Assembly: GCA_023247795.1 (NCBI GenBank) | Contig: JAHFFT010000002.1 | Coordinates: forward strand, 31,760 to 95,759 | Direction of reading: 5' to 3' | Source: Candidatus Omnitrophota bacterium | Lineage (GTDB): Bacteria; Omnitrophota; Gorgyraeia; Zapsychrales; JANLHA01 | Length of the DNA: 64,000 bases | Part shown: piece by piece, positions 10,238 to 53,680 of the stretch | Numbering within the stretch: position 1 is the first letter of the stretch | Layout: each line of letters begins with the position of its first letter | The notes under the pieces: generated by a model | Databases searched by the model: none | What the model saw: only the letters and a program-made list of their open reading frames with translations | Told to the model about the DNA's origin: nothing | Position numbers and translations under genes: made by a program

Positions 10238-10243
10238 AATTTT

Positions 10244-14016: not shown

Positions 14017-14023
14017 GCGTAAT

Positions 14024-23276: not shown

Positions 23277-23332
23277 TTTTGTGGTTAGGTGTTCAATGAT
23301 TTATGAATATGTGATAGATTGAATTTATAGAT

Positions 23333-26300: not shown

Positions 26301-26485
26301 ATTTTGTCAATAACGGGATCGCGTTAGTTGAAGAGATGAATCAGGATGAAGAGAAAATGTATTTATTGGTAAAGGGACAGTTGTCATCGGAGGACTTGAA
26401 TCCGCATTTCTTTGGAAAAGAAAAACATGATTTTTATAAGACCCTTGTTGATTTCAACAATTGGAATCATTTTTGGAACAATTAA
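23333..26485 (+). CDS. giant polytopic membrane protein, paralog C (1050 aa)
   Basis: Same architecture. Loop-1 motif DGRIGCRDF. Most divergent middle segment of the three. No 3' repeat after it. Confidence 0.55.
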   Translation: MKNKRLGNPQPAFPYNILFLLVALSCGLTFLWLTLDGRIGCRDFLDLAIHRYFFLNQAITGHEFPQWVPYVVHGAPTAYSNGEFGGRLQDVLLLISSFLPKINFLTYLNLGFLIDELLLAVGMWLWASRLFQHKLTMAFVSGTVLASSVWVYAPGFNLQIYCAIPLVLYFFHQFLDQGRWRYFLFGMNLLAIQAIGGAPYFFPVSSLVVFLYTVFYCLFNARDTQVKLRRIKFSVPAVISCLLVILSFMIVFSFYHFSFDQITINREADPEGKIGIVQFLSYGGSAGFAKWSALLLGFSSHLDIMLYSGILTVLLVIFYLLTGLKREGVPILVTFIFLLFFSAGGVLTKICYYVWPLMSYYRHVTYTAMIAKVFMIMLAGFGLDRLMHWKFQVSEEKHGKRSLVFMIVLALLMGISFIYVCSSGQAVYDLMVKLKAMTDVFLLRQYHLSNESFYDFILNGLGEGRGQFDEGISLIVCQLTRAAIAALMIGGLLCVLLVKDKIKKGLLITVLVLFHFSDVFGYKCLEMNLRTVKLDRQMTDLFNFHDMSFNRQRRTDLDWMNPRVFSFFKDEALLKVLLSSRWLYSSDNTLLFTDQVNGAFRTDYWPKSFNDYIRAHWRLPLDEYAIPKEKNKSQSLIVFPFEKESAKKISGITKEKIQFFSKAYALSSRDQTAEVLADPQYQGDAIFLDMDQDAEKSYQGVVEGFNKDELSRNDRVILRYEVLEFDANNLKLSVNNDSGQKVWLHYSDSWHPLGKVTINGKKGEIYKSNLAYKAVLLEQGANVVWFRFHSSWMVFLHYVVGINSLLWIIALFVFIVMILREKDTTSELGGKDWGFVFLLASILVIGHLILANTIPRVMYRTDKDGKSNMDYLERLAKHEEVYDEGKVKGGVRVLNRLAQVKSYRAIAWEDLGFCYYASHDGDKALEYYARSIKEEPFFYAAHYDAALVYLQRKEYGAAMEQLKAGVIKLQTFRSLVQNLVNDAAKNGMGDFVNNGIALVEEMNQDEEKMYLLVKGQLSSEDLNPHFFGKEKHDFYKTLVDFNNWNHFWNN

Positions 26486-29372: not shown

Positions 29373-31610
29373 ATGCGCAAAGAATTCTTAATTTTGGAAT
29401 CCCTTAAATTCAAGGGCGATTGTTTTAAGCTGTTTCGACGCTTGCGGCATCATCCCCACGCTTTTCTTTTAGAAAGCAGTTTGCGCCATAAAGATTACGG
29501 CCGCTATTCTTTCATGGGGTGCGATCCTTTTTTTGTCTTCAAGGGCGATGGCCGTAGTCTCCTTCCCAATCTTCGTAAACATTTTGAACCGTTTCATTTT
29601 CAGAAATTGAAATGCCCAACACCGTTTCCCGCCGGGATCTTGGGATATTTGAGTTATGATTATGGTTTAAGCCTTGAACACGTCGGGTCTGTCCGACGTG
29701 CTAAAGGGATCTTCGACGGATGGTTTGGTTTTTATGATACGGTTATCACGATTGATCATCAGCAGAGCAAGATTTTTATCTGCTCGTCTGGCTGGCCGGA
29801 AAGGAAATTAGCGGCGCGAAAAATAAGGGCGCAGAAACGCCTTCAGGAGATCATATCTTGCTTAGAGAAAGAAGAGTTGCCCGAGATTTCCATTCCTCTT
29901 CGCCCAAGCGTTTTTCGTTTGCAAAGCAATTTCAGTAAGGGGCAGTATGTGCAGGCCGTTCAGAAGGCCAAAGAGTATATCCGTGCCGGTGACATTTATC
30001 AGGTGAACTTGTCACAAAGATTTCATTGCGATCTGCCGTCGTCTCAAGGTAAGGAAGATTCATTAAAACTTTACGAGGTGTTGAAATCCCTTTCCCCGGC
30101 GGCCTTTTCTTCTTATCTTGACGTCGGAGGATTTCAGATCATCAGCAGTTCGCCGGAACGGTTTTTGAGTTTGCGAGAGAACTTGATCCAGACCCGCCCT
30201 ATGAAAGGGACTCGACCCCGAGGAGAAAATCAAAGGGATGATTGGGAGCAAAGAGAGAGTTTGCTGCATAGCAGCAAGGAAAAGGCTGAATTGCTGATGA
30301 TCACCGATCTTGAACGCAACGATTTGGGACGGGTGTGCGATTTTGGATCCGTTCAGGTGGAACGCCTGCGGACTTTGGAGCGATACAAAACTGTTCATCA
30401 GGCCACGTCAACCATTTCCGGCCGGTTAAGAAAAGATAAGGATTGTTTTGATTTGCTGGGTGCGGCTTTTCCCGGTGGATCCATCACCGGCTGTCCTAAA
30501 ATTCGCGCGATGCAGATCATTCAAGAATTGGAAAAGACGCCCCGCGGGATTTACACCGGTTGTTTGGGCTATGTTTCATTTGACCGGAATATGGATTTTA
30601 ATATTTTGATCCGTACTTTGCTCCGTCAGGATTCGCAAGTGGCTTTTCAGGTCGGCAGTGGGATTGTGGCGGATTCAAAGCCCAATGCCGAGTATCAGGA
30701 GACGTTGGATAAAGCCAAGGCCTTGAAAGAGTGCTTGTTAAAAATGACTGACCAAACTTCTGACCTGCGGGGTCAGAATGGTGAAAAGAGGGGAGTGTGG
30801 ATTTATTGGGACGGAGAAATGCGGGAGGTCCCAGAGGCGTTTTGTGATTCTTTAACACCCGGCAGATTTTCGGTCGATGGAGTTTTTGAAACCATGCTGT
30901 TTCATCAGGGGAATGTTGTTTTGTTGGAACGGCATCTCAAACGGTTTGTTAAAGGCGCGGTCACGGTCGGAATTCAGAAAATTCCAACTGTTCAGCGGTT
31001 GAAGTGGATTATCAAAGACGTCATCAGAAAAAATGGTTTTCAGTTGGCGCGCGTACGGTTGATGGCTTGGCAACAGTCGAGTAAAGGTGTTTTCTGCGCG
31101 ATGGTTTTGCCGCATCAGCTTTACCCGAAAGCAAAATACGAAAAGGGGTTCCATGTGCAGATGGCTCATCGGAAGATTTGTTCCGACGCAAAACCAAGTC
31201 ATGTGAAGTCGTTGGATTATGGAAACTTTTATCAGGCGTATGTGAAGACGAAAGCGCTGGGGTATGATGAGGTGGTATTTTTAAATGAGCGCGGGGAAGT
31301 GGCGGAGGCCAGCCGCAGCAACATTTTTTTGGTGAAAGATGGGCAGTTGTTAACTCCGCATTTGAAATCCGGAGCTCTCGATGGAATCACCCGTTGGCAA
31401 GTGATCCAAGTGGCAAGAAAATTCAACCTGCGCGTTCAAGAAACATTTTTAACAAAAGTTGACTTATCAGCCGCTGATGAAATGTTTTTAACCAACTCGC
31501 TGTTGGGCGTCATGCCGGTCACACGGCTGAGCGGACAGTCGGTGGCCGACGGTCGGCCCGGCCCGATCACGGAACAGCTTAAAAAAAAATATGACCGGCG
31601 TTTAAATTAA
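29373..31610 (+). CDS. fused aminodeoxychorismate synthase component I (PabB) / class IV aminotransferase-fold aminodeoxychorismate lyase (PabC)
   Basis: Chorismate-binding motifs SSPERFL, PMKGTRPRG, LMITDLERNDLGRV, GGSITGCPKIRAMQII. C-terminal ~270 aa is a branched-chain/ADC-lyase-type fold. Confidence 0.75.
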   Translation: MRKEFLILESLKFKGDCFKLFRRLRHHPHAFLLESSLRHKDYGRYSFMGCDPFFVFKGDGRSLLPNLRKHFEPFHFQKLKCPTPFPAGILGYLSYDYGLSLEHVGSVRRAKGIFDGWFGFYDTVITIDHQQSKIFICSSGWPERKLAARKIRAQKRLQEIISCLEKEELPEISIPLRPSVFRLQSNFSKGQYVQAVQKAKEYIRAGDIYQVNLSQRFHCDLPSSQGKEDSLKLYEVLKSLSPAAFSSYLDVGGFQIISSSPERFLSLRENLIQTRPMKGTRPRGENQRDDWEQRESLLHSSKEKAELLMITDLERNDLGRVCDFGSVQVERLRTLERYKTVHQATSTISGRLRKDKDCFDLLGAAFPGGSITGCPKIRAMQIIQELEKTPRGIYTGCLGYVSFDRNMDFNILIRTLLRQDSQVAFQVGSGIVADSKPNAEYQETLDKAKALKECLLKMTDQTSDLRGQNGEKRGVWIYWDGEMREVPEAFCDSLTPGRFSVDGVFETMLFHQGNVVLLERHLKRFVKGAVTVGIQKIPTVQRLKWIIKDVIRKNGFQLARVRLMAWQQSSKGVFCAMVLPHQLYPKAKYEKGFHVQMAHRKICSDAKPSHVKSLDYGNFYQAYVKTKALGYDEVVFLNERGEVAEASRSNIFLVKDGQLLTPHLKSGALDGITRWQVIQVARKFNLRVQETFLTKVDLSAADEMFLTNSLLGVMPVTRLSGQSVADGRPGPITEQLKKKYDRRLN

Positions 31611-35973: not shown

Positions 35974-36375
35974 ATGAAAGAAACCAACCTCAAATTCGAA
36001 ATTCGTTTTTATGAAGGGATTTTAGAACACAAGCCGGATTTCATCCAGGCCTTGATGGCCTTGGCGGATTGTTACACCAGGGACGGTCAACATGAAAAAG
36101 GTCTGGTCCTTGATAAGCAACTCTCCCAATTACGGCCGGAAGATCCTTACATCCTTTACAATTTGTCGTGCAGTTATTCTTTACTCAACCAGGTCGATAA
36201 GGCCTTTGAGACAATGAAATTGGCGATCGATGGCGGCTATGATGATTTCCGTTTTTTAGCCAAGGACCAGGACTTGGAAAATCTTCGCAACGACCAACGG
36301 TTCCAGGAATATTTGCTGCAGTTCAAAAACAAGCGCGTTTTTGATCAAAACCCTGATTTAAAAACACATCCTTGA
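35974..36375 (+). CDS. small TPR-like protein
   Basis: ALMALADCYTRDGQHEKG…YNLSCSYSLLNQVDKAFETMKLAIDGGY are helical-repeat hallmarks. Confidence 0.4.
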   Translation: MKETNLKFEIRFYEGILEHKPDFIQALMALADCYTRDGQHEKGLVLDKQLSQLRPEDPYILYNLSCSYSLLNQVDKAFETMKLAIDGGYDDFRFLAKDQDLENLRNDQRFQEYLLQFKNKRVFDQNPDLKTHP

Positions 36376-39203
36376 TTGTGAATAAAACTTGGCCGCTCAT
36401 CCTTGTCGCGTGTCTGCTCGGGGGGGTGGCCCCGTCTTTTGTCTTTGCCGCTCAGCCGCCGAGATATGAAATGCAAGTCCGTGTTGACACGGATAAGAAA
36501 TTTTTGACCGCCAACCAAACAACCATGTTCACCAATCCTACCGCGCAGCCGTTGAAAGAAATTTATTTCCATATCTATCCTAACCGTCGATATACCGCGA
36601 AAGAAATTGGTTTTCTATGTCGTTTTGGTGGCTATTTCAAGGTCAATTTTTTTCCGGAAGGGTATCAGCGGACCCGTATGCAGATTGGATCAGTGAGAAC
36701 GGGAGAGCAAAATTTGTCCTATCAAATCGAAGGCGACGACGAGACCCTTTTAAAGATCGCGTTGCCACAACCTTTAGCGCCAGGAGAGACGGTTGCGCTG
36801 ACCATCGATTTCAAGATCGGATTGCCGCATCAGTATGGACGATTTGGCTGGCATAAAAACATCATCCAGCTTTCCCGTTGGTATCCGATCCTAGCGGTGG
36901 TCGATGAGAAGGGATGGAACAAGGCGCCATTCTATCCTTACCAGCGCCCGTTTTACAGCGAGGCCTCCTTTTATGATGTGTCCTTAACGGTCCCAGAGAA
37001 TCAAATTGTCATTCATTCCGGAATCGAAGACGCGAGCAAGCCCATCGCTGAAGGACAGAAGACCGTGCATATCAAAACCGAAAATCCAATAAGGGATTTC
37101 AGCATGGCGATGAGCAAAGACTATTTGCTGTTGAGCCAAAAAGCGCAGGACATCACGTTCAAGGCCTTTTACTTTCCTGGTAACGAACAGCATGCCCGGC
37201 AGGCGCTTGATAGCGCCCAGCAAATGATGGCCGCGTATTCACAGAAGTTTGGGCCGTATCCGTATTCGGAATTCAGCATTGCCCCGGTTTATTTGGGGTA
37301 CGGCGGGGAGCAGATGGCGAACATGATTTTTGTAGATACCCGAGTTTTTGAGATGCCGCAAGTTTTGAATCGGCATTTTGATTTTTTAATTTCGCATGAA
37401 ACCGGGCACCAGTGGTTTTACAATCTGGTCGGTGTTGATGAATACTGCCAGATGTGGCTGGAGGAAGGGGTCCATTCTTTTTTTCTTTCGGAATATTTCC
37501 GGCAAAAATACGGCGCGGACGCGTCCATTTTGGATTTTCCGAAATGGTGCAAGAGTTGGAACTGGGTCTTACCGAAGTTGACTTTTGAGCGGGCGAGTAC
37601 GGTCCGATATCAGATGATGGTTCGCATGGGATATGACCGGCCGATCGTCGATGATCTATCTAGTTTCGCGGAACCGAGCAGCATTTTCGCGTTGACCTAC
37701 GGCAAGGGAGCACAGATTGTAAAGATGTTGCAAACCTTGTTGGGTCGAGAACGGATGGATAAGATTTTTCAAAGGATCTTTCGAGAATACCAATTTAAAA
37801 ATTGGTCGATCGTGGACTTTAAAAAAATTTGTGAACAGGAAAGCGGTTTGTCTTTGGATTGGTTTTTCCAAGAGTGGCTGCATTCGGTAAAAAAGCTCGA
37901 TGTTACCGTTCGCAAGGTACAAGGGAATCGGTTAGTCTTACAAAATCGCGGCAACGCCGTGATGCCGGTCAAGGTGCGGATACGGTTTCGGGATGGGGGA
38001 GAGGAAACTTTTGATTGGCAGCCACGGGGTGCCGGCGAGATCGCGACTTTTGAAAAGAGTCGCAGGATCAAATCGGTGCAAGTTGATCCGGAAAGAACTT
38101 TGCTCGATGTTGATCGCACCAATAATCTCTGGCCACGGGTCGTTGAAATCCATCCGGTGCCAATTTATCTGGGGCTTTACGATCTGCCGGTCCTTTTGCC
38201 AGACGACCGCGTCAATGTCGTGATTGGTCCGGAGACCGCCAATTCCGGTTTAGGCCTCAAGGTTTCGGTCCAAAAGCCGTATGATCAGATTTTTTATGCC
38301 GGTACTGATTATGAATTTCATGAAAGACATCACCATGCTCGTCTGGGCTATCAGTTAAAAAATGTTTTGCAATCACAAACAACGTTAGGGGTGGAGATTG
38401 CCAATCGCAATGATACCAAAGGGGACGAGGAGGATTTGGCCAGCGGGAAAGTGTATCTGCGCAAAGAATTGTCACCGAGCCAATATGGATTGGCTGAGAT
38501 CAATGATCACGCCACGTTGTATGTGATGCGTAACCAGAGTTTGAATGACACGGTTGATTTTATCTCTGGACGGGAAGATGTTCGGAACTTGAATTATTCC
38601 CGGATCGACGAAGCGATTGTGGGGACAACAATGCATCTGGACCGTTCTGGTCCTTATCCGGATCCGGTCAAAGGATACCGTTTGGATACGAGTCTGGAAA
38701 GCGCCGGACATTTTCTGGACGCGACCCAGTTCTTTTACCGTTCGCAGATCGATTTGAGCCTGTATCATCCCGTGACGCCAAAATCGACCTTGGCCTTGCG
38801 CAACAAGTACGATTGGGGATATCCAGATGACAAGGATTTGTTTCATATCGGCGGGATGGACGGCCTGCGGGGTTTTGAACGCAAAACGATCCGCGGGGCC
38901 AACGCTTTTTTAAGCAGTGTGGAGTATCGTTTTCCCATCAAAGAAGACTTGAAAATCCATGCCTTGGATAACATCTTTGGTTTGGAAAAGGTGAGTGGAG
39001 TGATTTTTTTTGATGCTGGCCAGGCCTGGTTTTCTGATTTTTCTGAATCGCGTTTGCGCAAAGACGCGGGATTGGGCCTGCGTTTTCACGTCGATGTTGG
39101 TTCGTTTTTAGAAAAGGTTGTTGTCCGTATGGATGTGGCCAAGGCCATCAACGAACCCGACGATGATGTCGAGTTTTGGTTTGGGGTCAATCATGCTTTT
39201 TAA
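36372..39203 (+). CDS. M1-family zinc metallopeptidase fused to a C-terminal Omp85/bacterial-surface-antigen beta-barrel
   Basis: Signal peptide. Gluzincin HETGHQWFYNLVGVDEY…WLEEG (HExxH-x18-E). C-terminal GGMDGLRGFERKTIRGANAFLSSVEYRFPI and terminal …FWFGVNHAF (a beta-barrel signature with terminal Phe). Confidence 0.6.
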   Translation: MIVNKTWPLILVACLLGGVAPSFVFAAQPPRYEMQVRVDTDKKFLTANQTTMFTNPTAQPLKEIYFHIYPNRRYTAKEIGFLCRFGGYFKVNFFPEGYQRTRMQIGSVRTGEQNLSYQIEGDDETLLKIALPQPLAPGETVALTIDFKIGLPHQYGRFGWHKNIIQLSRWYPILAVVDEKGWNKAPFYPYQRPFYSEASFYDVSLTVPENQIVIHSGIEDASKPIAEGQKTVHIKTENPIRDFSMAMSKDYLLLSQKAQDITFKAFYFPGNEQHARQALDSAQQMMAAYSQKFGPYPYSEFSIAPVYLGYGGEQMANMIFVDTRVFEMPQVLNRHFDFLISHETGHQWFYNLVGVDEYCQMWLEEGVHSFFLSEYFRQKYGADASILDFPKWCKSWNWVLPKLTFERASTVRYQMMVRMGYDRPIVDDLSSFAEPSSIFALTYGKGAQIVKMLQTLLGRERMDKIFQRIFREYQFKNWSIVDFKKICEQESGLSLDWFFQEWLHSVKKLDVTVRKVQGNRLVLQNRGNAVMPVKVRIRFRDGGEETFDWQPRGAGEIATFEKSRRIKSVQVDPERTLLDVDRTNNLWPRVVEIHPVPIYLGLYDLPVLLPDDRVNVVIGPETANSGLGLKVSVQKPYDQIFYAGTDYEFHERHHHARLGYQLKNVLQSQTTLGVEIANRNDTKGDEEDLASGKVYLRKELSPSQYGLAEINDHATLYVMRNQSLNDTVDFISGREDVRNLNYSRIDEAIVGTTMHLDRSGPYPDPVKGYRLDTSLESAGHFLDATQFFYRSQIDLSLYHPVTPKSTLALRNKYDWGYPDDKDLFHIGGMDGLRGFERKTIRGANAFLSSVEYRFPIKEDLKIHALDNIFGLEKVSGVIFFDAGQAWFSDFSESRLRKDAGLGLRFHVDVGSFLEKVVVRMDVAKAINEPDDDVEFWFGVNHAF

Positions 39204-44582: not shown

Positions 44583-44601
44583 TTTGGGAGAGGAGACAAG
44601 C

Positions 44602-44997
44602 ATGAAAATCCTGGCTATTTTTTTTAAAATCATCGCGGTGATCACGGGTCTCTTGTTGCTATCGGTGAGTTTGTTTTTTTATTTCAATCCTCAACAGGTG
44701 TTGAATACGCCGCTGGGTGCTTACTTAACGGTCGCAAAGATTCGGATGATGTGCTCGGTGTATATGGCATACGCGCTCTTATTTCTTATTCCCAATGCCG
44801 TTCTTTTGCGCGTCCGCATCGCTTCGATTTCCTACATGATCATTACCTTTCTTGTCGCGGTGTATTTGTCTTTCCAGCTTCTTACCGCCTCCTGGGGGCA
44901 TTTGAAAGGCTATCATCTTCCCTATATTTTCTGTCTTTTATCTGCGGGCCTGTCACACCTATGCATGTATGTCCATGTCGGAAAAAGTGATGAGTGA
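44602..44997 (+). CDS. small membrane protein (4 TM segments, hypothetical)
   Basis: GGAGAGGAG Shine-Dalgarno sequence, then ATG. Hydrophobic throughout. Confidence 0.4.
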   Translation: MKILAIFFKIIAVITGLLLLSVSLFFYFNPQQVLNTPLGAYLTVAKIRMMCSVYMAYALLFLIPNAVLLRVRIASISYMIITFLVAVYLSFQLLTASWGHLKGYHLPYIFCLLSAGLSHLCMYVHVGKSDE

Positions 44998-45230
44998 GAT
45001 GAAAACCGCTAGGAAAAAACTGCATTTTTCGCGTACCTTCTTTCAAACCACATCGCTCCTACCTTAAATAATACAAGTTTTTTTTTGGTTAAAAGATATC
45101 AAGTTTCCTAGAAAGCGCTTTCTTTTGCGAAGCTGAAAGCCTTTTTTCTTAGCGGGCCAGGTGTTACAGTTGATTGGGAGCTAAGATTTTTCCGGTTGCT
45201 GTTAAAAATGAACAGGAAAGGAGTTTTACC

Positions 45231-46370
45231 ATGAAAGCCGAACAAAAAATTTGGTCTTTAGCCGCGGGTTGGCAAACAGAATCTGATCATCAATTGGGAG
45301 AAAAGGCGCAGCTGGTTCTGATATTTGGGGGAGCCGATTACCTCAAAGACCGCAAACGTATTGAAGAAATCAAACATTTTTATCCAAAAGCCCATTTGGT
45401 TGGATGTTCCACCGCTGGAGAAATCTGCGGGACCCATGTCGCCGATGATACGATTGTTTTGACCGCTGTTCAGTTCGAGCACACCACGATCAAGGTGACT
45501 AATATTAAGCTTAAAAGTATTGAAAACAGTTTCATGGCCGGTGAACGATTGATTGCGGCCATGGGTAAGCAGGGGTTGGCGCATGTCATTGTCCTTTCGG
45601 AAGGGATCCACGTCAACGGCAGTGAACTTGTCAAAGGGATGGCAAGCCAGCTTTCGCAAAAGGTGTCTGTCACCGGCGGTCTTTCCGCGGACGGAGATCG
45701 TTTCAAAAAGACTTTTGTTATTTGTGATCAAGAAGCCGAAGAAGACACGATCGCGGCGATTGGTCTTTATGGCGACCACATCAAAGTTAATTTCAGCGCC
45801 ATGGGAGGGTGGGAACCGTTTGGTCCGGAAAGGATGGTCACTCGCTCCGAGAGCAATGTTCTCTATGAACTGGATGGTCAATCGGCGCTTGCTTTGTATA
45901 AAGAATATTTAGGCGAACATGCCCAAAAGCTGCCGTCGGCGGCCTTGTTATTTCCTTTGAGCTTGCAGACTGCTGACCGCAAAGGTTGGGTGGTGCGCAC
46001 GATTTTAGGAATCAATGAAGAGGATCAAAGTATGACCTTTGCCGGGGACATTGCGGAAGGGTCTTTTGTCCGTTTGATGAGCGCGAATTATGACAATTTG
46101 ATCGACGGGGCCATTGGTGCCGCAAAGGCAAGTTATAAAAGCAATGGAAAGCCTGGTCCGGATTTGGCCATCTTGATGAGTTGTGTTGGCCGCAAATTAT
46201 TATTGAAGCAAAGGGTTGAGGAAGAAATCGAAGGCGTTCGTGATGTTTTTGGCGATCAAACGGTTCTAACTGGTTTTTACACCTACGGAGAGATCGCGCC
46301 ATTTCGAGCGAATACCCCTTGTGTCTTGCACAATCAAACAATGACGATCACGACTTTAAGTGAATATTGA
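45231..46370 (+). CDS. FIST domain sensor protein
   Basis: FIST_N-like LVLIFGGADYL…HLVGCSTAGEI and a FIST_C-like second half. AAAGGAG Shine-Dalgarno sequence before ATG 45231. Confidence 0.55.
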   Translation: MKAEQKIWSLAAGWQTESDHQLGEKAQLVLIFGGADYLKDRKRIEEIKHFYPKAHLVGCSTAGEICGTHVADDTIVLTAVQFEHTTIKVTNIKLKSIENSFMAGERLIAAMGKQGLAHVIVLSEGIHVNGSELVKGMASQLSQKVSVTGGLSADGDRFKKTFVICDQEAEEDTIAAIGLYGDHIKVNFSAMGGWEPFGPERMVTRSESNVLYELDGQSALALYKEYLGEHAQKLPSAALLFPLSLQTADRKGWVVRTILGINEEDQSMTFAGDIAEGSFVRLMSANYDNLIDGAIGAAKASYKSNGKPGPDLAILMSCVGRKLLLKQRVEEEIEGVRDVFGDQTVLTGFYTYGEIAPFRANTPCVLHNQTMTITTLSEY

Positions 46371-46372
46371 AG

Positions 46373-46401
46373 ATCCACGGACGTCGGTCCGTGGATTTTT
46401 T
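46373..46401 (+). terminator. rho-independent terminator after the FIST gene
   Basis: atccacggac-gtcg-gtccgtggat followed by TTTTTT. A second perfect 11-bp hairpin lies at 46406..46431. Confidence 0.6.
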
Positions 46402-46448
46402 AATTGGGACTTTCGCTTTAGCGAAAGTCCCGCGAAACGGGAATAACC

Positions 46449-48686
46449 ATGGCCAAGATCTTACATCCGTTATTTAAGAGGCAGTTTCAAAAATATTTAG
46501 GCTCTTCACGGAGTCTTTATCGGCAGTTTCATGATTATTTTTTGGCCGTGAACAGCTGTTACTGGCAGAGCGACGATGATCGCAAGCGGGTAGAAAGAAC
46601 ATTGGTCATCAGTTCTAAGGAATTGTTTGAAAGGAACTCGGAGATCCGCGCGGTGTTTGAGGCCTTTCCAGACTTATTTTTACGCATTGATGATCAGGGA
46701 CGGATTTTATCTTCACAATCGCCGAAAACAAATGATTTTCATTGGCTTCCTAAGGGGTTGATAGGGAAAAGCATTATGCAGCTTTTTGGAGAAGGGGCGG
46801 GGCGGGAATTTGTTCGTGCCATGGAAGCTGTTAAGGAGTCAAAGACCTTGGTCAGCATCGAATTTGAGCAAAAGGTCGATGGGCAAACTTATCATTACGA
46901 ATCGCGATTTTTGCCGCTCATGGATCAGCAGTATATCATCACGATCAGGAATATCACCGAACGTAAAATCGTGACCAAAGCCTTACGCGAAAGCGAGGAG
47001 CGGTATTCCTTGGCCGTCACCGGTGCCAATGACGGGATGTGGGATTGGGATCTGCAAACGAATCAGATCTTTTTTTCCGAGCGCTGGAAAACCATGCTGG
47101 GATTCGCGAATCATGAACTTATGGATACCCCGGATGAATGGCTGAAGCGCGTGCACCCGGATGATATTCAAAGACTCAGATTAAAAATCAACGCGCAGCT
47201 TAAGAATGTCGAGCCGCATTTCGAATTGGAATACCGTATTTTTAATAAAGATCAGCAGGTTTGCTGGGTTCTGACCCGGGGAGTGGCGGTTCGCGATCAA
47301 CTGGGCAAAATCACGCGCATGGTTGGTTCGCAGACCGATATCACAAAAAGAAAACTCGCGGAAGATCAGCTCCGCCACGACGCGCTGCACGATAAATTGA
47401 CCTCGCTGCCCAATCGAGCGCTTTTCATTGACCGTCTGGAGAATTTGATCGAACGCAATAAGCGCAATCCGCAGATTTATTTTGCCGTGCTTTTTATCGA
47501 TTTGGACCGTTTTAAAATGATCAACGACAGTTATGGTCATACGTTGGGGGATCAGCTGCTTATCAAAATCAGCAAACGTTTGAAGGCTTGTATGCGTTCG
47601 GGTGATACGGTCGCCCGACTCGGAGGAGATGAATTCACGATTTTGCTGGAAGATATCCAACATATTCAGGAGGCGACCAGTTTTGCCGAACGCATTCAAG
47701 ATGAGCTCTCTCATCCTTTTGATTTGAACGGGCAGATGATTACGGTAACGGCAAGCATAGGAATTTTGATGAATTCACACGAGCATCAAGGGGCCGAGGA
47801 TTATTTGCGGGACGCCGATAACGCGATGTACAGTGCCAAGATGCGCGGTAAGGCCTGCCACGAGGTTTTTGATAAATCCATGCATCAGGTGATCATGGAC
47901 CGCTTGAATCTGGAAGTGGATTTGCGACGGGCTTTGGAGAAAAAAGAATTTATCATGTATTATCAGCCCGTTGTTTCCTTGATGGATGGAAAGATCAAAC
48001 GGTTCGAGACCTTGATCCGTTGGCGTCATCCCCAGCGCGGCTTATTGGAGCCAAGCGAATTCATAACAATTGCCGAGGAGACCGGTCTCATCGTTGGCCT
48101 TGGACAGTGGATTTTGGAAAACGTTTGCCAGAAATATCAGTTGATTTTAAATGCCGGCTATTCCGACGTGGGAATCGCGGTCAACTTCTCAACCAGGCAG
48201 TTTCAACACCAGCGTTTGTTGGACATGATCCGGACCGTCATGCAAAACACAAAGATGGATTCCCGATTCATTGAAATTGAGATCACCGAATCCATGGCTA
48301 TGCGGGATGTCAATTTTACCGTCAATGTTTTGAATCAGCTAAAAGCCATGGGCTTTACGATCGCGATTGATGATTTCGGAGTCGGGTATTCGTCATTGAG
48401 TTCGCTCAAAATGCTGCCGCTGGATTGTTTGAAGGTCGATCAAAGTTTTATCCGTGACATTGCGGAGAACATCGACAATCAAGCGATCACCCAGGCGATC
48501 GTTGCTATGGCGCATACCTTAGGGATTCGGGTGGTGGCAGAGGGTGTTGAAAAAGAATCGCAGTTGCGGCTTTTACAGAAAAACGGTTGTGATGAAGCTC
48601 AGGGATATTTGTTCAGCCGTCCGGTTCCTTTCCATCAGGCCTTAACACAATTGAAGCAAGACGCCTTTGCCGTAATTCGGCATTGA
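46449..48686 (+). CDS. PAS/PAS-GGDEF-EAL c-di-GMP turnover protein
   Basis: Diguanylate cyclase RLGGDEFTILL. EAL domain with ETLIRW (an EAL variant), IAIDDFGVGYSSL, and Q-rich motifs. Two PAS-like N-terminal modules. Confidence 0.8.
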   Translation: MAKILHPLFKRQFQKYLGSSRSLYRQFHDYFLAVNSCYWQSDDDRKRVERTLVISSKELFERNSEIRAVFEAFPDLFLRIDDQGRILSSQSPKTNDFHWLPKGLIGKSIMQLFGEGAGREFVRAMEAVKESKTLVSIEFEQKVDGQTYHYESRFLPLMDQQYIITIRNITERKIVTKALRESEERYSLAVTGANDGMWDWDLQTNQIFFSERWKTMLGFANHELMDTPDEWLKRVHPDDIQRLRLKINAQLKNVEPHFELEYRIFNKDQQVCWVLTRGVAVRDQLGKITRMVGSQTDITKRKLAEDQLRHDALHDKLTSLPNRALFIDRLENLIERNKRNPQIYFAVLFIDLDRFKMINDSYGHTLGDQLLIKISKRLKACMRSGDTVARLGGDEFTILLEDIQHIQEATSFAERIQDELSHPFDLNGQMITVTASIGILMNSHEHQGAEDYLRDADNAMYSAKMRGKACHEVFDKSMHQVIMDRLNLEVDLRRALEKKEFIMYYQPVVSLMDGKIKRFETLIRWRHPQRGLLEPSEFITIAEETGLIVGLGQWILENVCQKYQLILNAGYSDVGIAVNFSTRQFQHQRLLDMIRTVMQNTKMDSRFIEIEITESMAMRDVNFTVNVLNQLKAMGFTIAIDDFGVGYSSLSSLKMLPLDCLKVDQSFIRDIAENIDNQAITQAIVAMAHTLGIRVVAEGVEKESQLRLLQKNGCDEAQGYLFSRPVPFHQALTQLKQDAFAVIRH

Positions 48687-49450: not shown

Positions 49451-50099
49451 CGCCAACATTGATCAAGTCATCGAACGGTTGCGCAAGGCGTTGAAAGGCC
49501 TGCCGGATCCTTCGGTCACCTTGGTTGGTAAACGCTGGCAGAGTCCTTTTTTGGTCTTGATCTCTTGCATCATGAGTTTGCGCACGAAAGATGAAACAAC
49601 ACTACCGGCGGCCGAACGTTTGTTCGCGGTGGCTGATACGCCGGCCGCGATGCTAAAGATATCGACGGAGAAATTGGAAAGATTGATTTATCCAGTGGGT
49701 TTTTATAAAACCAAGGCCAGGACGATCAAAGGGATTTGTCGCGACGTTTTAGAAAAATTTGACGGAAAAATTCCGAATGACTTGGATACTTTGCTTTTGA
49801 TGAAAGGGGTCGGGCGCAAGACCGCGAATTTGGTTTTGACCGAAGGTTTTTGGATTCCGGCGATGTGTGTCGACACGCACGTTCATCGGATCTCTAATCG
49901 TTTTGGTTATGTTAAAACTAAAAATCCGGAAGAAACAGAATTTGCTTTGCGAAATCAGTTGCCTAAAAAATATTGGATGCGGTATAACGCGCAGCTTGTC
50001 ACGTGGGGACAGAATATCTGCCGGCCGATTTCGCCGTTTTGTTCACGCTGCCCCATCACGCGTTTTTGCGGCCGGGTCGGGGTCATGGCGACCCGATAA
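49440..50099 (+). CDS. nth: endonuclease III (base-excision DNA glycosylase/lyase)
   Basis: HhH-GPD LLLMKGVGRKTANLVL…D. C-terminal 4Fe-4S C-x6-C-x2-C-x5-C (CRPISPFCSRCPITRFC). Overlaps nnrE by 11 nt. Confidence 0.85.
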   Translation: MVDNANIDQVIERLRKALKGLPDPSVTLVGKRWQSPFLVLISCIMSLRTKDETTLPAAERLFAVADTPAAMLKISTEKLERLIYPVGFYKTKARTIKGICRDVLEKFDGKIPNDLDTLLLMKGVGRKTANLVLTEGFWIPAMCVDTHVHRISNRFGYVKTKNPEETEFALRNQLPKKYWMRYNAQLVTWGQNICRPISPFCSRCPITRFCGRVGVMATR

Positions 50100-50212
50100 C
50101 AGGAAGTCTTTCATCCATTACTTTTTGAGAGGATGAGCATTTTTTACATTATTTATGATTGTTTTTTTATTTAAATGTGGATAGAATGATCAACAAGGAG
50201 TCAACTTAAGCA

Positions 50213-51244
50213 ATGAAAATCGGATTTACTTATAACAGCAAAACGGACTGGGTGCTTTCTGCAAACGATCCGCTTGACGCTAACGCCGAACTTGATAAGC
50301 CAAAGACCATTGAGTCAATCATCAAGGCCTTTGAATGGGGCGGCCATCAGGTGAAGCGCATCGGCAACGTCGATAATTTATTAGCACAGCTTGATGATCT
50401 TGATGTGGACATTGTTTTCAATATTTGCGAAGGTTTCCGCGGTCGTAATCGTGAGTCGCAAGTCCCGATCCTTTTAGAGATGCGCGGGATCCCTTTTGTT
50501 GGTTCCGATGCCTTGACCTTGGGCATTACTTTGGACAAGGCCGTCGCTAAAAAATGTTTTATCGCCGATGGTTTGCCCACACCCTCCTTTGCCCTGATGC
50601 ATAAACTGAGCGATTGCGACGCGATCGGTCATTTGCGTTTCCCGTTGATTGTTAAAACTTGTCATGAGGGAACATCCAAGGGATTGACCGACCAATCGCG
50701 GGTGGAAACCGCGGAACGGTTGAGGCAGCAAGTTGAATACATCATTCGAACGTATCGTCAACCGGCCTTGGTGGAAGAATTCATTTCAGGGACGGAATTT
50801 ACTGTTCCGGTTTTAGGCAATGATCAGCCGCAGGCCATGCCAGTGGCCCAGGTGTGCATGGATGGTAGCACGGATTTGGGAGATAAATTTTATACCTTCG
50901 CGCGCGTCTGTTCGCCCAATTTGCGATACGTGTGCCCGGCGAAACTTTCGCGAGAAGCGGCCAAAGAAATTCAGAATCTGGCGGTGCGGGCTTACCAGTC
51001 CGTCGGTTGCCGGGATTTTGGCCGGATCGATTTTCGAGTTGACCGTCAGGGCCAACCGTACATTTTAGAAATCAATCCCTTGCCCTCGTTGGATGGCGAG
51101 GATGTTTTTAATATTTTCCCAAAGCTCTTGGGTTCATCATATAACGCAGTGCTTAATCAAATCATCGATTTTGCTTGCCAACGTTATGGTTTAAAATCGT
51201 CAGAAAAAGCAACGGCGATATCCCATCCGCAGGAAAGGAGATAA
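50213..51244 (+). CDS. D-alanine--D-alanine ligase family ATP-grasp enzyme (substrate unknown)
   Basis: Ddl-like N-domain VFNICEG…GIPFVGSDALTLGITLDKAVAKK. ATP-grasp core EEFISGTEFTV…LEINPLPSL. Stop 1 nt before the KamA-like start. Confidence 0.6.
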   Translation: MKIGFTYNSKTDWVLSANDPLDANAELDKPKTIESIIKAFEWGGHQVKRIGNVDNLLAQLDDLDVDIVFNICEGFRGRNRESQVPILLEMRGIPFVGSDALTLGITLDKAVAKKCFIADGLPTPSFALMHKLSDCDAIGHLRFPLIVKTCHEGTSKGLTDQSRVETAERLRQQVEYIIRTYRQPALVEEFISGTEFTVPVLGNDQPQAMPVAQVCMDGSTDLGDKFYTFARVCSPNLRYVCPAKLSREAAKEIQNLAVRAYQSVGCRDFGRIDFRVDRQGQPYILEINPLPSLDGEDVFNIFPKLLGSSYNAVLNQIIDFACQRYGLKSSEKATAISHPQERR

Positions 51245-52435
51245 ATGAATCCCGTCGATACGTTAAGTTTGCCTTTAACTGAGCACAAGATCGTTAAGGC
51301 GAAGCCAAAGATCAAACTTACTCCGTCGGAAAAACGCGTTTTAAAGTATTTTCCTGATGCCACGGAAATCGATTGGGAAGACTGGCGCTGGCAGCTGCGG
51401 CATCGGATTAAGACCAAAGATGTGATCGCGCAGATGATGTCATTGACTCCTCAGGAAGAACGCGGCATCGGCGGAGCAGGCGGGAAACTCACGATGTCCA
51501 TTCCACCGTATTTCGCCAGCCTCATCGATCCTGAGGATCCGCAATGTGTCATTCGTTTGCAATCCGTGCCCCTGGACAATGAGTTGGAAGTGGCTCCCGA
51601 GGAGATGAAAGATCCGTGCGGCGAGGATAAGAACTCACCGGTCCACGGATTGGTTCATCGTTATCCTGACCGGGTATTGTTTCTGGTCAACGAAATGTGT
51701 GCGATGTATTGCCGGTATTGCACACGTTCGCGGATGGTGGGCGATGGGAAGCGAACATTGAGCACCACCACGTATGAAGCGGCTTTTGATTATATCCGTT
51801 CGCATCGGGAAATCCGTGATGTCTTGATTTCGGGCGGCGATCCTTTGACGCTTGCTGACAGTCTTTTGGAATACATCATTAAAAATTTGAAGGCCATCAA
51901 ACATGTCGAGTTTGTTCGGATTGGTTCGCGCATTCCGGTCACGCTCCCGCAGCGGGTCACTTCGGAGTTGGTGGCGATGCTCAAAAAATATTCGCCGATC
52001 TGGATGAGCATCCATTTCAATCATGCCAAAGAAATCACCGAACGGGTGAAATACGCCTGCAATCTCATCGCCGACCACGGCATCCCGATGGGCAGCCAGA
52101 CCGTGCTTTTAAAAGGGATCAATGATGATCCAGCGACGATGAAGCAGCTCATGCACGAACTTTTGAAAATCCGCGTTCGGCCCTATTACATTTATCAGTG
52201 CGATCCGATCCTTGGATCAAGGCATTTTCGCACCCCCATCAGCGTCGGGATTAACATCATGAAAAATTTGCGCGGTTTCACCACTGGTTACGCGGTCCCG
52301 ACGTTTGTGATCGACGCCCCGGGAGGCGGAGGCAAGGTCCCTTTGAGTCCCAATTACATTGTTTCGCAGGATGACGACAAAGTCGTTTTGAAGAATTTCG
52401 CCGGGGACGAGTATACGTATTACAATCCAGACTGA
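51245..52435 (+). CDS. lysine 2,3-aminomutase family radical SAM enzyme (KamA/EpmB-like)
   Basis: Radical SAM CAMYCRYCTRS (C-x3-C-x2-C). SGGDPL and PLP-lysine-region conservation typical of KamA. 396 aa. Confidence 0.75.
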   Translation: MNPVDTLSLPLTEHKIVKAKPKIKLTPSEKRVLKYFPDATEIDWEDWRWQLRHRIKTKDVIAQMMSLTPQEERGIGGAGGKLTMSIPPYFASLIDPEDPQCVIRLQSVPLDNELEVAPEEMKDPCGEDKNSPVHGLVHRYPDRVLFLVNEMCAMYCRYCTRSRMVGDGKRTLSTTTYEAAFDYIRSHREIRDVLISGGDPLTLADSLLEYIIKNLKAIKHVEFVRIGSRIPVTLPQRVTSELVAMLKKYSPIWMSIHFNHAKEITERVKYACNLIADHGIPMGSQTVLLKGINDDPATMKQLMHELLKIRVRPYYIYQCDPILGSRHFRTPISVGINIMKNLRGFTTGYAVPTFVIDAPGGGGKVPLSPNYIVSQDDDKVVLKNFAGDEYTYYNPD

Positions 52436-52487
52436 ATTCCCTTTGATCAGCCCATTTCCGAACGGAATGTGACCGAAATATAGAGTT

Positions 52488-52790
52488 ATGAAGAAGATTG
52501 AAGCCATTGTCCGTAAAGAAAAGTTTGAGGAAGTTTGCCAGGCTTTGGAAAATTCGGGAATTGGCGGCGTGACGGTGACCGAAGCCAAGGGTTTCGGCAA
52601 CCATCGCAACGGGCTCAAACCGAAGATGAAGATCGAGATTTACGTTGATGAATTTCAGATCGAGCGGATTGTCGATGTGATCCGTCGGACCGCGAAGACC
52701 GGGACCACTGGCGATGGAAAGATTGCGGTTTTAGATTTAGAAAAACTTTATAAAATCCGCACGGGGGAAGAAGGGGCCGCGGCGATCTGA
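52488..52790 (+). CDS. PII (GlnB)-like signal transduction protein with a shortened T-loop
   Basis: MKKIEAIVRKEKFEEVCQALE…GVTVTEAKGFG…KIEIYV…TGTTGDGKIAVLDLEKLYKIRTGEEGAAAI. The T-loop is ~12 aa shorter than canonical GlnB. Confidence 0.55.
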   Translation: MKKIEAIVRKEKFEEVCQALENSGIGGVTVTEAKGFGNHRNGLKPKMKIEIYVDEFQIERIVDVIRRTAKTGTTGDGKIAVLDLEKLYKIRTGEEGAAAI

Positions 52791-52853
52791 AATGCGGGTC
52801 GCCTCTTCTCAAACCATTTGGGCCGTGGTTGTCCAAGCGATGCTTTCTCATGC

Positions 52854-52882
52854 TTGACTTACAATGGCGAAGAGCGTAATAT
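52854..52882 (+). promoter_or_regulatory. sigma70-like promoter upstream of rpsU
   Basis: TTGACT - 17 nt - TAATAT, about 50 nt upstream of rpsU ATG 52933. AAGGAAGG Shine-Dalgarno sequence before the ATG. Confidence 0.45.
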
Positions 52883-52932
52883 AGGTTCTCTTAAGCCCCA
52901 TTCAATTTAAGGAAGGTTGGTGAGATCATTCT

Positions 52933-53094
52933 ATGGTAGAAGTCAAAATTACTGATAAACATGGTTTTGAAAAGGCCATGCGCATTTTTAAAAAGCAGTG
53001 TCAGAAAGAGGGCTTTTTAGTTGAATTGAAAGAACGACGTTACTATTCAAAGCCATCCGAGCGCAAACGACGCACCGGCAGCAAAAGAAGCTGA
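52933..53094 (+). CDS. rpsU: 30S ribosomal protein S21
   Basis: MVEVKITDKHGFEKAMRIFKKQCQKEGFLVELKERRYYSKPSERKRRTGSKRS, 53 aa. Not in the ORF track because it is under 60 aa. Confidence 0.85.
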   Translation: MVEVKITDKHGFEKAMRIFKKQCQKEGFLVELKERRYYSKPSERKRRTGSKRS

Positions 53095-53155
53095 TCGTCG
53101 TTTCCAGATTTTCAAATAACACCCTGTTGGATTCCACAAGAACCTAGTATCTTTG

Positions 53156-53680
53156 ATGGAAAAACCTCGTCGAAAGATTGCCATCCTTGTTGAAGACCTT
53201 TATCAGGTCTTGGAGGTGTGGTATCCGCTTTTGCGTCTGCAAGAGGCCGGGATCGAGGTTACGACCATCGGCACCGGCAATAAGAGCACGTATGGCAGCA
53301 AAGAAGGTTACCCCATCACCGTCGATACCTCTATTCAAAAAGCGAAGGTAACGGATTTTGATGGTGTCATCATCCCCGGAGGCTACGCCCCAGATATTTT
53401 GCGGCGCTACGACGAGGTGGTGGCTTTTGTCAAACGACTTTATCTTGACGGACGGGTCGTCGCCGCGATTTGTCACGGCGGCTGGCTTTTGGTTTCCGCC
53501 GGTATCATCAAGGACCAGCAAGTGACTTGCTTTTATGCCATCAAAGATGATTTGATCGCCGCTGGCGGTCATTATGTTGACCGCGAAGTCGTTGTTGATC
53601 AGAACCTCATCACGTCCCGTAAACCTGAGGATTTGCCGCGGTTCGTTCAAGAGATCATCAAACTCATCGAGAGAAGCTGA
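53156..53680 (+). CDS. DJ-1/PfpI family protein (class I glutamine-amidotransferase-like fold)
   Basis: Nucleophile-elbow AAICHGGWLL. KIAILVEDLYQ…PGGYAP is the typical DJ-1/PfpI layout. Confidence 0.7.
   Translation: MEKPRRKIAILVEDLYQVLEVWYPLLRLQEAGIEVTTIGTGNKSTYGSKEGYPITVDTSIQKAKVTDFDGVIIPGGYAPDILRRYDEVVAFVKRLYLDGRVVAAICHGGWLLVSAGIIKDQQVTCFYAIKDDLIAAGGHYVDREVVVDQNLITSRKPEDLPRFVQEIIKLIERS

Follow-up and report, generated by a model that had tools for sequence, protein, structure and literature searches.

Two adjacent genes of an Omnitrophota genome probably encode a two-enzyme module that makes beta-lysine and then ligates it, in an ATP-dependent manner, into a small peptide or conjugate. 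In the proposed pathway, a KamA-type radical SAM aminomutase would turn L-lysine into beta-lysine, and a Ddl-like ATP-grasp ligase encoded by the coupled upstream gene would spend ATP on the formation of an acyl phosphate, with the ensuing amide bond placing beta-lysine in the product. Beta-lysine may be either the acyl donor or the amine acceptor in the ligase reaction, and the product could conceivably serve as a compatible solute (osmolyte) or an organic cation. To our knowledge, the fates of beta-lysine are few: it can be acetylated to an osmolyte, attached to EF-P, fermented or built into NRPS antibiotics. A ligase-based route, if it exists, would be a new fate; it appears to be shared by an entire uncultivated phylum, and many archaea encode it as single fused proteins. 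We found no curated family for the ligase-aminomutase pair, and our search of the full-text literature returned no description of such a pair, the only precedent for the adjacency being pboF/pboG, which is considered below.

The genes lie in a 64-kb stretch of DNA that was analyzed as a whole (hereafter, the window) and are followed by a gene for a PII protein with a short T-loop (Table 1). The source organism is a groundwater bacterium of the phylum Omnitrophota. Given the long ORFs and very strong family matches, all three window genes are far beyond chance. A first-pass annotation of the window had the coordinates and families of the three genes right, but the junction between the ligase and aminomutase genes is even tighter than the 1 nt that it gave, as the TAA stop codon of the former (51242-51244) abuts the ATG of the latter (51245-51247) with zero spacer. 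A Shine-Dalgarno sequence, AGGAG, is present at 51236-51240 within the end of the ligase gene. The abutting stop and start codons, together with the internal Shine-Dalgarno sequence, indicate that translation of the ligase and aminomutase is likely coupled. A promoter and terminator scan of positions 49900-53300 gave counts at the level of shuffled sequence, and no operon boundaries could be called from it.

Table 1. Features of the ligase-aminomutase region, in window coordinates.
Feature	Coordinates	Strand	Remarks
Ddl-like ATP-grasp ligase, 343 aa	50213..51244	+	intact ORF; proposed beta-lysine amide ligase
Putative translational-coupling junction	51236..51247	+	AGGAG, TAA, ATG
KamA-type radical SAM lysine 2,3-aminomutase, 396 aa	51245..52435	+	intact ORF
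PII (GlnB/GlnK-like) protein, 100 aa, 12-residue T-loop deletion	52488..52790	+	intact ORF

The ligase has the hallmarks of the ATP-grasp superfamily. It matches the Pfam domain Dala_Dala_lig_C (E = 4e-34), and its top relatives among solved structures are all Ddl (E = 1e-29), the sole solved L-amino-acid ligase to match being 3VOT, which does so weakly (E = 3.6e-6). An AlphaFold model of the protein (pLDDT 86.7) has the three-domain fold and superposes over its full length on Ddl structures, with TM scores of 0.76-0.83. In the alignment, the ATP/Mg and catalytic residues K109, K148, E188, E195, R271, D273, E286 and N288 are invariant. Compared with the DdlA/DdlB/VanA family, Ddl K97, K144, E180, E187, R255, D257, E270 and N272 are kept, as is E15 (E26 in the ligase), and the ligase differs in having an extra N-terminal insert of ~11 residues.

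The substrate pocket, on the other hand, departs from that of Ddl. Our reference for the D-Ala site was E. coli DdlB, the sequence of which was checked as identical to 2DLN and whose site we take to be formed by E15, H63, S150, K215/Y216, S281 and L282. Read from the alignment alone and not from a ligand-bound structure, Ddl H63 is replaced by E73, E68-D69-G70 by R78-N79-R80, V152 by K156 and S281 by D297, and the GEDG motif becomes R-N-R-E-S. Throughout the ligase clade H63 is replaced by E, Y216 is lost, S281 is replaced by D or E, and K215 is replaced by V or I with an adjoining R; at the other positions of the site, E15 is kept, S150 is T or S, and L282 is variable. The curated HMMs agree, with the ligase scoring at best 166 bits against the cut-off of 243 for NF002378, the most permissive Ddl model, and falling under the cut-off of each of 25 Ddl/Van models, the best-scoring of 47 matches. 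The HMM cut-offs and altered pocket residues rule out a genuine Ddl, and the ligase is predicted to be a Ddl-family enzyme other than a D-Ala-D-Ala ligase. No mur or fts context was seen at any locus examined, the Mur_ligase-domain matches being to the FolC homologue of a PurH-FolC-MnmE block, and neither a canonical Ddl nor a second ligase paralogue was found elsewhere within the 64-kb window. The ligase family has 977 clusters at E < 1e-30. If our reading is correct, it would give a function to a large branch that is mis-annotated as 'D-alanine-D-alanine ligases'.

For the aminomutase, residues 33-395 match the Clostridium subterminale lysine 2,3-aminomutase (2A5H) with 469 bits, and a score of 347.8 bits against TIGR00238 (cut-off 199.2) places the protein among the KamA-family radical SAM 2,3-aminomutases. 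The 4Fe-4S cluster motif is C152-x3-C156-x2-C159, and the PLP lysine is K364 (K337 in 2A5H). D320 (YQCD) and D357 (VIDAPGGGGK) align with the C. subterminale residues D293 and D330, which we take to bind the epsilon-amino group of lysine; both lysine-binding Asp residues are thus kept. Glutamate or arginine 2,3-aminomutase identity was ruled out by the retention of these residues and by the lower scores of the corresponding models. The top NCBIfam model is AblA (TIGR03820), and the score of 508 bits is just below its equivalog cut-off of 525.4, with only positions 2-362 of the 417-position model covered and ~55 C-terminal positions absent. The protein ends at the equivalent of 2A5H residue 369, ~20 residues short of the C terminus of that enzyme. 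The C-terminal region of 2A5H presumably holds Zn-site cysteines, and 2A5H C268 is D295 in the aminomutase. Among the aminomutases of Omnitrophota loci, 62/67 have 390-403 residues, and these proteins stop at the same point as the aminomutase domains of the fusion proteins described below, so the truncation marks one clade. Taken together, the aminomutase appears to be of the KamA/AblA type and not EpmB, and lysine-specific as judged from its residues.

The argument for a common function comes from the company that the two genes keep. A survey of GTDB species-representative genomes recovered the ligase gene in at least 582 of them, and the best 80 loci, all of the Omnitrophota type, were examined. 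An aminomutase gene lies downstream of the ligase gene in 28/28 and 37/37 loci, which is 65/65 of the GTDB Omnitrophota species loci with enough sequence, and the pair always occupies the same place in the chromosome, surrounded by core genes. Flanking genes in the Omnitrophota include those for MgtE, Nramp, Nth, PII, S21 and DJ-1. Synteny is strong throughout the housekeeping block that holds these loci (Era ... PurH-FolC-MnmE), which makes adjacency in the Omnitrophota by itself a weak argument, and the case for coupling depends instead on neighborhoods in other phyla and on fusions. Outside the Omnitrophota the housekeeping neighbors are entirely different, and the ligase and aminomutase genes still adjoin one another in an Elusimicrobiota contig and at two further loci (L090 and L091). 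Fusions of the two enzymes are found in both orders, ATP-grasp::aminomutase (P0183) and KamA::ATP-grasp (P0255), and make up more than 100 clusters at 90% identity, with cluster names that include Thermoplasmatota, Methanocellales, Woesearchaeota, Nanoarchaeota, Spirochaetales and Deltaproteobacteria. The unvarying adjacency and the fusions across Bacteria and Archaea strongly support functional coupling of the predicted ligase and aminomutase, in keeping with the suggestion of the first-pass annotation that they work together. P0255 and P0325 are archaeal fusions; P0325 takes its name from a Methanocellales MAG, and P0328, another carrier of the system, from a Spirochaetales MAG. Both lysine-binding Asp residues are present in the inspected fusions of the P0255 type. 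P0183 has Q at the D293 position and scores slightly better against the glutamate 2,3-aminomutase model, so the common theme may be a ligase paired with some beta-amino acid, which need not be beta-lysine in every case. Two relatives of the ligase (L088 and L089) have no aminomutase gene within 8 kb, and the wider ligase family is therefore not tied exclusively to beta-lysine.

The window has a minimal version of the system with one ligase. Of the best 80 Omnitrophota loci, 47 have a second ligase paralogue, and the number of ligase domains per system ranges from one to three, with a GNAT sometimes added in other lineages. Arrangements seen elsewhere are KamA::ligase with ligase::GNAT, KamA with a double ligase and a GNAT, and KamA::ligase with two more ligases. 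The GNATs of these loci matched no NCBIfam model at E <= 1e-8, AblB included. Tandem double ATP-grasp fusions are numerous in the ligase family, and in a rough neighbor-joining tree of ligase domains, without support values, the paralogues fall into distinct clades. The added ligase domains and GNATs suggest a peptide product of two to four residues, perhaps N-acylated. Some neighbors hint at an ionic or osmotic role, which is suggestive only: a Woesearchaeota locus is adjoined by MscL, a Na+/H+ exchanger, a Na+/Ca2+ exchanger and CorA, another locus (L093) by Na+/H+ exchangers, and in ~24 Omnitrophota loci MgtE, with or without Nramp, is directly upstream. The window pair has no such transporter neighbor. 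Most source samples were groundwater or freshwater, so a need for an osmolyte is not obvious. An M20 peptidase is encoded near 20 two-ligase (type B) loci and an S58 peptidase at L088, neither being consistently linked to the system.

It is possible, and we advance this more tentatively than the two-enzyme module itself, that these systems represent an unrecognized pathway of Bacteria and Archaea in which a truncated KamA-type aminomutase feeds one to three Ddl-derived ligase domains, and sometimes a GNAT, to yield an undescribed beta-lysine peptide metabolite, for instance a compatible solute or organic cation of a new class. Such a pathway would be a phylum-wide core trait of the Omnitrophota, shared with DPANN archaea of small genome size, and in some Omnitrophota it would be adjoined by a natural 'T-loop-less' PII protein with a mode of signaling unlike that of the textbooks.

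The closest known system is AblA/AblB, which synthesizes N-epsilon-acetyl-beta-lysine in methanogens and has a counterpart in Bacillus, KamA/YodP. Both systems combine a KamA/AblA-type aminomutase that has the two lysine-binding Asp residues with a second enzyme that derivatizes beta-lysine at an amine or carboxylate (here proposed), and a compatible-solute product is plausible for both. They differ in the partner, which is an ATP-dependent Ddl-like ligase here and a GNAT acetyltransferase in AblA/AblB, and in that the aminomutase here lacks the C-terminal segment and scores below the AblA equivalog cut-off. The first-pass annotation had set the pair apart from AblA/AblB and from EpmA/EpmB, and both distinctions hold: among the scanned window ORFs, all of 150 aa or longer, there was no GNAT, LysRS paralogue or tRNA-synthetase-like ORF. 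In the EpmB/EpmA (YjeK/PoxA) system, an aminomutase likewise supplies beta-lysine to an ATP-using, amide-forming enzyme, as we propose here, but that enzyme is a class II aminoacyl-tRNA synthetase paralogue that proceeds through an adenylate, whereas an ATP-grasp partner would use an acyl phosphate. The aminomutase scores 238 bits against the EpmB model (TIGR03821; cut-off 369), and the system described here is frequent in archaea. The proposed chemistry, in which a carboxylate is converted to an acyl phosphate and free amino acids are ligated, resembles that of the L-amino-acid ligases and carnosine synthase, although these belong to different ATP-grasp subfamilies from the ligase. Carnosine synthase, which makes beta-alanyl-histidine, exemplifies ATP-grasp ligation with a beta-amino acid.

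Several other explanations have to be weighed against a beta-lysine peptide or conjugate. In one of them the ligase, by itself or together with its paralogues, would work in repeated cycles and yield, in place of a defined dipeptide, a polycation of the oligo- or poly-beta-lysine type, comparable to cyanophycin or the streptothricin side chain. The varying number of ligase domains and the many double fusions would accommodate such a scheme, the acidic substitutions E73 and D297 would fit a cationic partner, and the double ligase at L088 adjoins a gene for a Peptidase_S58 protein of the DmpA family, which includes beta-aminopeptidases. We nevertheless consider iteration unlikely, as the primer-binding or Mur-ligase-like module of cyanophycin synthetase is absent, the L088 locus lacks an aminomutase, and the distinct paralogue clades better fit successive, different ligations. 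The pair might instead modify a macromolecule, the ligase either taking the place of EpmA in the beta-lysylation of EF-P or another translation factor or decorating a cell-envelope precursor as D-aspartate ligase does. ATP-grasp modifiers of proteins and peptidoglycan precursors exist, RimK and the D-aspartate ligase of Enterococcus among them, and in the Omnitrophota the pair is conserved phylum-wide in the company of housekeeping genes related to translation (Era, S21 and MnmE). These neighbors are wholly different outside the phylum, though, and the aminomutase is of the KamA/AblA type by 508 bits to the 238 for EpmB, which also answers the concern, raised in advance by the first-pass annotation, that it might cluster with EpmB. 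The fusion form is common in Thermoplasmatota, Woesearchaeota and Nanoarchaeota, and archaea, as far as we know, have neither EF-P nor murein. With the extra ligase domains and GNATs better fitting assembly of a small molecule, macromolecule modification is quite improbable, and the earlier idea of a cell-wall component as the product, one of several then put forward, is weakened by the occurrence of the system in archaea.

Streptothricins and tuberactinomycins contain beta-lysine, and the pair might take part in secondary metabolism, in the making of an antibiotic or toxin. Aminomutase and ATP-grasp genes do adjoin in the Pbo cluster of Pseudomonas syringae pv. phaseolicola, a secondary-metabolite island in which pboF (KamA-like radical SAM) is next to pboG, as tabulated in PMC8473136. 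PboG belongs to a different ATP-grasp subfamily, being of the L-amino-acid-ligase type and not Ddl-like, and pboF/pboG does not form part of a conserved core. Genes for NRPS, PKS, tailoring or export are absent from the surroundings of the pair described here, and its fixed core-gene position in the best 80 loci, along with the breadth of genomes in the survey, makes this explanation very unlikely. We give the least credence to the view that the two genes are unrelated neighbors, with the ligase a real Ddl and the aminomutase serving lysine fermentation or acetyl-beta-lysine synthesis. Ddl does account for all the top matches of the ligase in sequence and fold, and synteny within the phylum is strong, but the sub-threshold scores, the changes at H63, Y216 and S281, and the replaced GEDG motif speak against a real Ddl, as does the position of the gene outside cell-division and cell-wall clusters at the examined loci. 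A ligase with every D-Ala-binding residue in place and a murF/ftsZ context was what the first-pass annotation said would overturn its reading, and neither was found. Fusions in both orders, archaeal ones included, and the abutting stop and start codons also count against unrelated neighbors, and the scanned window ORFs included none resembling kamDE/kdd/kce/kal or AblB.

The first-pass annotation had further suggested that the pair may be under PII-type control, which the distribution of the short PII does not bear out. The gene is present in 10/25 comparable Omnitrophota loci and in 0/35 loci of the other arrangement, and it was absent from every version of the pair seen outside the Omnitrophota. 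At two loci (L095 and L100) it lies ahead of the downstream housekeeping genes, S21/DJ-1/PurH, and neither a ligase nor an aminomutase gene is upstream of it. The short PII has only a positional link to the pair, seen in some Omnitrophota, and is not demonstrably part of the module.

The protein itself has the P-II domain (PF00543, 78.5 bits against a cut-off of 25, E = 5e-22) and 45-50% identity to canonical PII proteins. It keeps the B-loop (T-G-x-x-G-D-G-K-I; here TGTTGDGKI), the C-terminal R-x-R-T-G-E motif (here IRTGEEG) and the K58 equivalent of GlnB/GlnK. A DarA/PstA-type c-di-AMP receptor was ruled out, as the protein matches canonical GlnB/GlnK chains and has a normal B-loop. It scores well below the NCBIfam GlnB/GlnK equivalog cut-offs (81.5 against 202 and 74.7 against 181) and does not have the full T-loop of ~19 residues. 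Compared with canonical 112-residue chains such as 1PIL and 2EG1, HMMER placed a gap of 12 residues (two blocks of 6) in the T-loop, which matches the shortening originally noted and removes the Tyr51 and Ser49 modification positions. This deletion is common to all homologues of the short-PII clade, whose named members are from the Omnitrophota only, and the clade is, from its sequences, a genuine one. It offers a natural experiment on PII function without the main interaction loop.

Both enzymes of the pair, a Ddl-like ATP-grasp ligase and a KamA-type radical SAM aminomutase, are intact. Gene position and gene fusion link the two across many lineages, which bears out the coupling proposed in the first-pass annotation. 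The three ORFs of the site, the third encoding a short-T-loop PII protein, lie on the + strand exactly where that annotation had placed them. The ATG of the aminomutase abuts the ligase stop codon (TAA, 51242-51244) with no spacer, and an AGGAG lies inside the ligase gene 4 nt 5' of this ATG, an arrangement classical for translational coupling. A spacer of 52 nt separates the aminomutase and PII genes, and PII is followed by S21, a DJ-1/PfpI protein, PurH, FolC and MnmE. Every family-matched ORF of the window (ORFs of at least 150 aa were scanned) is on the + strand and GC skew is above 0 in every 2-kb bin, as would be expected if the window lay in one replichore with its genes biased to the leading strand. 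The window belongs to an Omnitrophota genome. A contig from a New Zealand groundwater MAG (JAHFFS010000042.1, GTDB) encodes proteins 93-100% identical to those of the window stretch, with 99-100% identity for the ligase, aminomutase and PII.

Features of the window, and loci outside Omnitrophota that carry the ligase with the aminomutase (:: denotes a single polypeptide)
Feature or locus	Coordinates	Strand	Description
Glycan-type biosynthesis cluster	167-12327		Two SDRs, three GT2 glycosyltransferases, four methyltransferase-domain proteins, Zn-dependent dehydrogenase, RmlD-like reductase, FAD amine oxidase-like protein
Two ORFs	12349-15718		555 and 564 aa
Three tandem ORFs	16812-26485		1033, 1037 and 1050 aa
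PabB-PabC fusion	29373-31610		Chorismate-binding (PabB-like) domain fused to class IV aminotransferase (PabC-like) domain
Peptidase_M1/Omp85 ORF	36372-39203		Peptidase_M1 domain and C-terminal Omp85 outer-membrane domain
Insertion between Era and YjeF_N	44584-48686		Small membrane protein, FIST-domain protein, PAS/GGDEF/EAL protein
Ddl-like ATP-grasp ligase	50213-51244	+	343 aa ORF
KamA-type aminomutase	51245-52435	+	396 aa ORF
Short-T-loop PII protein	52488-52790	+	100 aa ORF
Ribosomal protein S21	52933-53094	+	Next gene after PII
Elusimicrobiota locus			Ligase and aminomutase 4 kb apart
L090 (unassigned contig)			Ligase and aminomutase adjacent
L091			Aminomutase, fused double ligase, GNAT
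L093			Aminomutase::ligase, then ligase::GNAT
L174 (Woesearchaeota)			Aminomutase::ligase and ligase
L175 (Deltaproteobacteria)			Aminomutase::ligase and two ligases

A ligase scan with one genome per GTDB species gave at least 582 relatives, the best 80 of which were examined as loci; these came from records titled Omnitrophota or Omnitrophica, third-party 'uncultured Planctomycetales' assemblies and one record with a Margulisiibacteriota label. About half of them share the flanking genes of the window. In some, the ligase gene is followed by a second paralogue (39% identity to the first), and only then comes the aminomutase. Wherever enough downstream sequence was available among these 80 loci, the aminomutase lies downstream, both with a single ligase (28/28) and with two (37/37). 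The second paralogue is found in 47 of the best 80 species loci (e.g., L053:6982-7983, 333 aa) and groups in a rough tree with the archaeal aminomutase-fused ligase domain. Since gene order around the locus is strongly conserved in this phylum, adjacency within Omnitrophota would be insufficient by itself to show that the two are functionally linked.

The decisive evidence for a functional unit comes from outside the phylum, where the two enzymes are neighbors or parts of one polypeptide. Fusions occur in both domain orders (proteins P0183 and P0255), and with P0255 as query >100 clusters (90% identity) of fused proteins were retrieved, with source names in the Thermoplasmatota, Methanocellales, Woesearchaeota, Nanoarchaeota, Spirochaetales and Deltaproteobacteria. 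Both lysine-binding aspartates are kept in the inspected aminomutase::ligase fusions. There are exceptions. P0183, an ATP-grasp::aminomutase protein (L092:6001-8088), has Q in place of D293 and may use a different beta-amino acid; it scores slightly better on the glutamate 2,3-aminomutase model. Locus L089 has a single ligase with no aminomutase nearby. In L088 (L088:8001-11432), a Peptidase_S58 (DmpA family) gene comes after a fused double ligase (724 aa) without an aminomutase nearby, and the two may be a synthesis/degradation pair for another beta-peptide.

The window aminomutase gives an ungapped alignment with 2A5H, the Clostridium subterminale lysine 2,3-aminomutase (residues 6-368; 469 bits), and keeps the radical SAM cysteines (C152, C156 and C159) and the PLP lysine (K364). 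Its D320 and D357 align to 2A5H D293 and D330, the aspartates that bind the epsilon-amino group of lysine. The best NCBIfam model is lysine 2,3-aminomutase AblA at 508 bits, just under the equivalog cut-off of 525.4, followed by glutamate 2,3-aminomutase (452 bits), arginine 2,3-aminomutase (422 bits) and EpmB (238 bits). The protein stops near position 362 of the 417-position AblA model, and the missing C-terminal segment is the one that bears the zinc-site cysteines in 2A5H; 2A5H C268 is D295 here. This truncation is not a local accident: of the 67 Omnitrophota loci with a readable gene end, 62 encode an aminomutase of 390-403 residues with the same terminal Y-x-Y-x-(D)P motif, and in the fusion proteins the aminomutase domain ends at the same place.

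Sequence and structure prediction group the ligase with the Ddl-type ATP-grasp enzymes: it matches Pfam Dala_Dala_lig_C (4e-34), its PDB matches are all Ddl, and its confident model (pLDDT 86.7, pTM 0.87) resembles DdlB and DdlA along its entire length (TM 0.76-0.83). It falls far under all the curated Ddl/Van models listed, the 25 best-scoring of 47 matches (best 166 bits vs a cut-off of 243), and a search of NCBIfam found no model covering its clade. We aligned E. coli DdlB (reference sequence checked to be identical to 2DLN/1IOV) with the window ligase, 17 orthologues, the second paralogue and halves taken from fused relatives. The DdlB ATP, Mg and transition-state residues are all conserved (K97, K144, E180, E187, R255, D257, E270 and N272), as is E15, the Ddl contact for the acyl donor's amino group. 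The D-alanine-site residues are altered across the family: at H63 there is an invariant Glu (E73), R-N-R-E-S takes the place of the G-E-D-G turn, V152 is an invariant Lys and Y216 is lost. S281, which in Ddl anchors the second D-alanine by its carboxylate, is Asp or Glu in the window ligase's own clade (D297 in the window). Judged from the alignment, the two added acidic pocket residues would suit a substrate that bears further amino groups, for example beta-lysine. With 977 clusters at 50% identity (E < 1e-30), the ligase family is a large one, and probably not every branch of it is dedicated to beta-lysine.

What might the pair make? From the established chemistry of their families, the aminomutase would convert L-lysine to beta-lysine, and the ligase would form an acyl phosphate first and an amide second. 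We infer that the ligase uses beta-lysine as one of its two substrates, either acyl donor or amine acceptor, and the product would therefore be a dipeptide or conjugate containing beta-lysine. Lineages with two to three ligase domains and a GNAT domain may make a longer peptide, possibly N-acylated. As to its role, we tentatively favor a small cytoplasmic solute, i.e., a compatible solute or organic cation, because the precedent for this type of aminomutase outside fermentation is the osmolyte N-epsilon-acetyl-beta-lysine, because carriers include organisms both with and without murein or EF-P, and because cation-handling genes recur beside the pair in unrelated lineages. The neighbors include MscL, a Na+/H+ exchanger, a Na+/Ca2+ exchanger and CorA in L174 and Na+/H+ exchangers in L093, and MgtE, often accompanied by Nramp, immediately precedes the ligase in about 24 loci of the Omnitrophota (including L001, L003, L005, L009 and L010). 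Support for the solute role is weak, and the window itself has no such cation-handling neighbors; MgtE is absent there, and Nth is immediately 5' of the ligase.

The pair resembles AblA/AblB and EpmB/EpmA in that the aminomutase supplies a beta-lysine-derivatising enzyme, and ATP-grasp L-amino-acid ligases and carnosine synthase in the ligation step. It belongs to none of these systems: the partner enzyme is of a different class, the window aminomutase is under both the EpmB and AblA equivalog thresholds, and the window ligase misses the Ddl thresholds and site residues. We found no description of the ligase-aminomutase pair in the open-access literature searched, within which it constitutes an undescribed variant of beta-lysine derivatisation; the nearest published case is pboF, which adjoins pboG in a Pseudomonas toxin-related cluster (PMC8473136). 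The module is widespread, is present in both prokaryotic domains, is misleadingly annotated at present, and could be tested by simple biochemistry.

The PII protein is a genuine GlnB/GlnK relative, with intact nucleotide-binding B-loop and C-terminal motifs. Its T-loop is 12 residues short, the missing stretch including the positions uridylylated or phosphorylated in canonical PII. The best solved match, the 99-residue PII chain 5OVO_B, aligns end to end and is presumably a T-loop-shortened construct. The short form is a stable natural clade, because there are >120 clusters (at 90% identity) of 100-residue homologues, 71-84% identical to it, and those with named sources are all Omnitrophota. 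The consensus loop is GFGHHRNGLKEK, and the carriers are the window and loci L008, L009, L012, L022, L025, L027, L029, L044, L060, L083 and L094-L101. A metagenome scan with PII gave 503 confirmed relatives; 8 of the best 80 loci have the short form, and the others a canonical 112-residue PII at 42-50% identity. Among Omnitrophota, short PII is present in 10 of the 25 one-ligase loci and 0 of the 35 two-ligase loci, and it was not found in any version of the pair seen outside the phylum. In L095 PII is followed by the housekeeping genes DJ-1 and PurH, and in L100 by PurH; the genes 5' of it are unrelated in both loci. The link of PII to the pair is positional and partial, and the PII-type control entertained in the first-pass annotation is thus not supported.

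Elsewhere in the window, the three tandem ORFs and the two ORFs 5' of them match no Pfam family except for one weak TPR match. The PabB-like and PabC-like functions, fused in the window, are separate genes just 3' of the aminomutase in L090. The insertion between Era and YjeF_N is missing from most other Omnitrophota loci, and the Peptidase_M1/Omp85 architecture (946 aa) recurs in the Omnitrophota loci L001 and L003.
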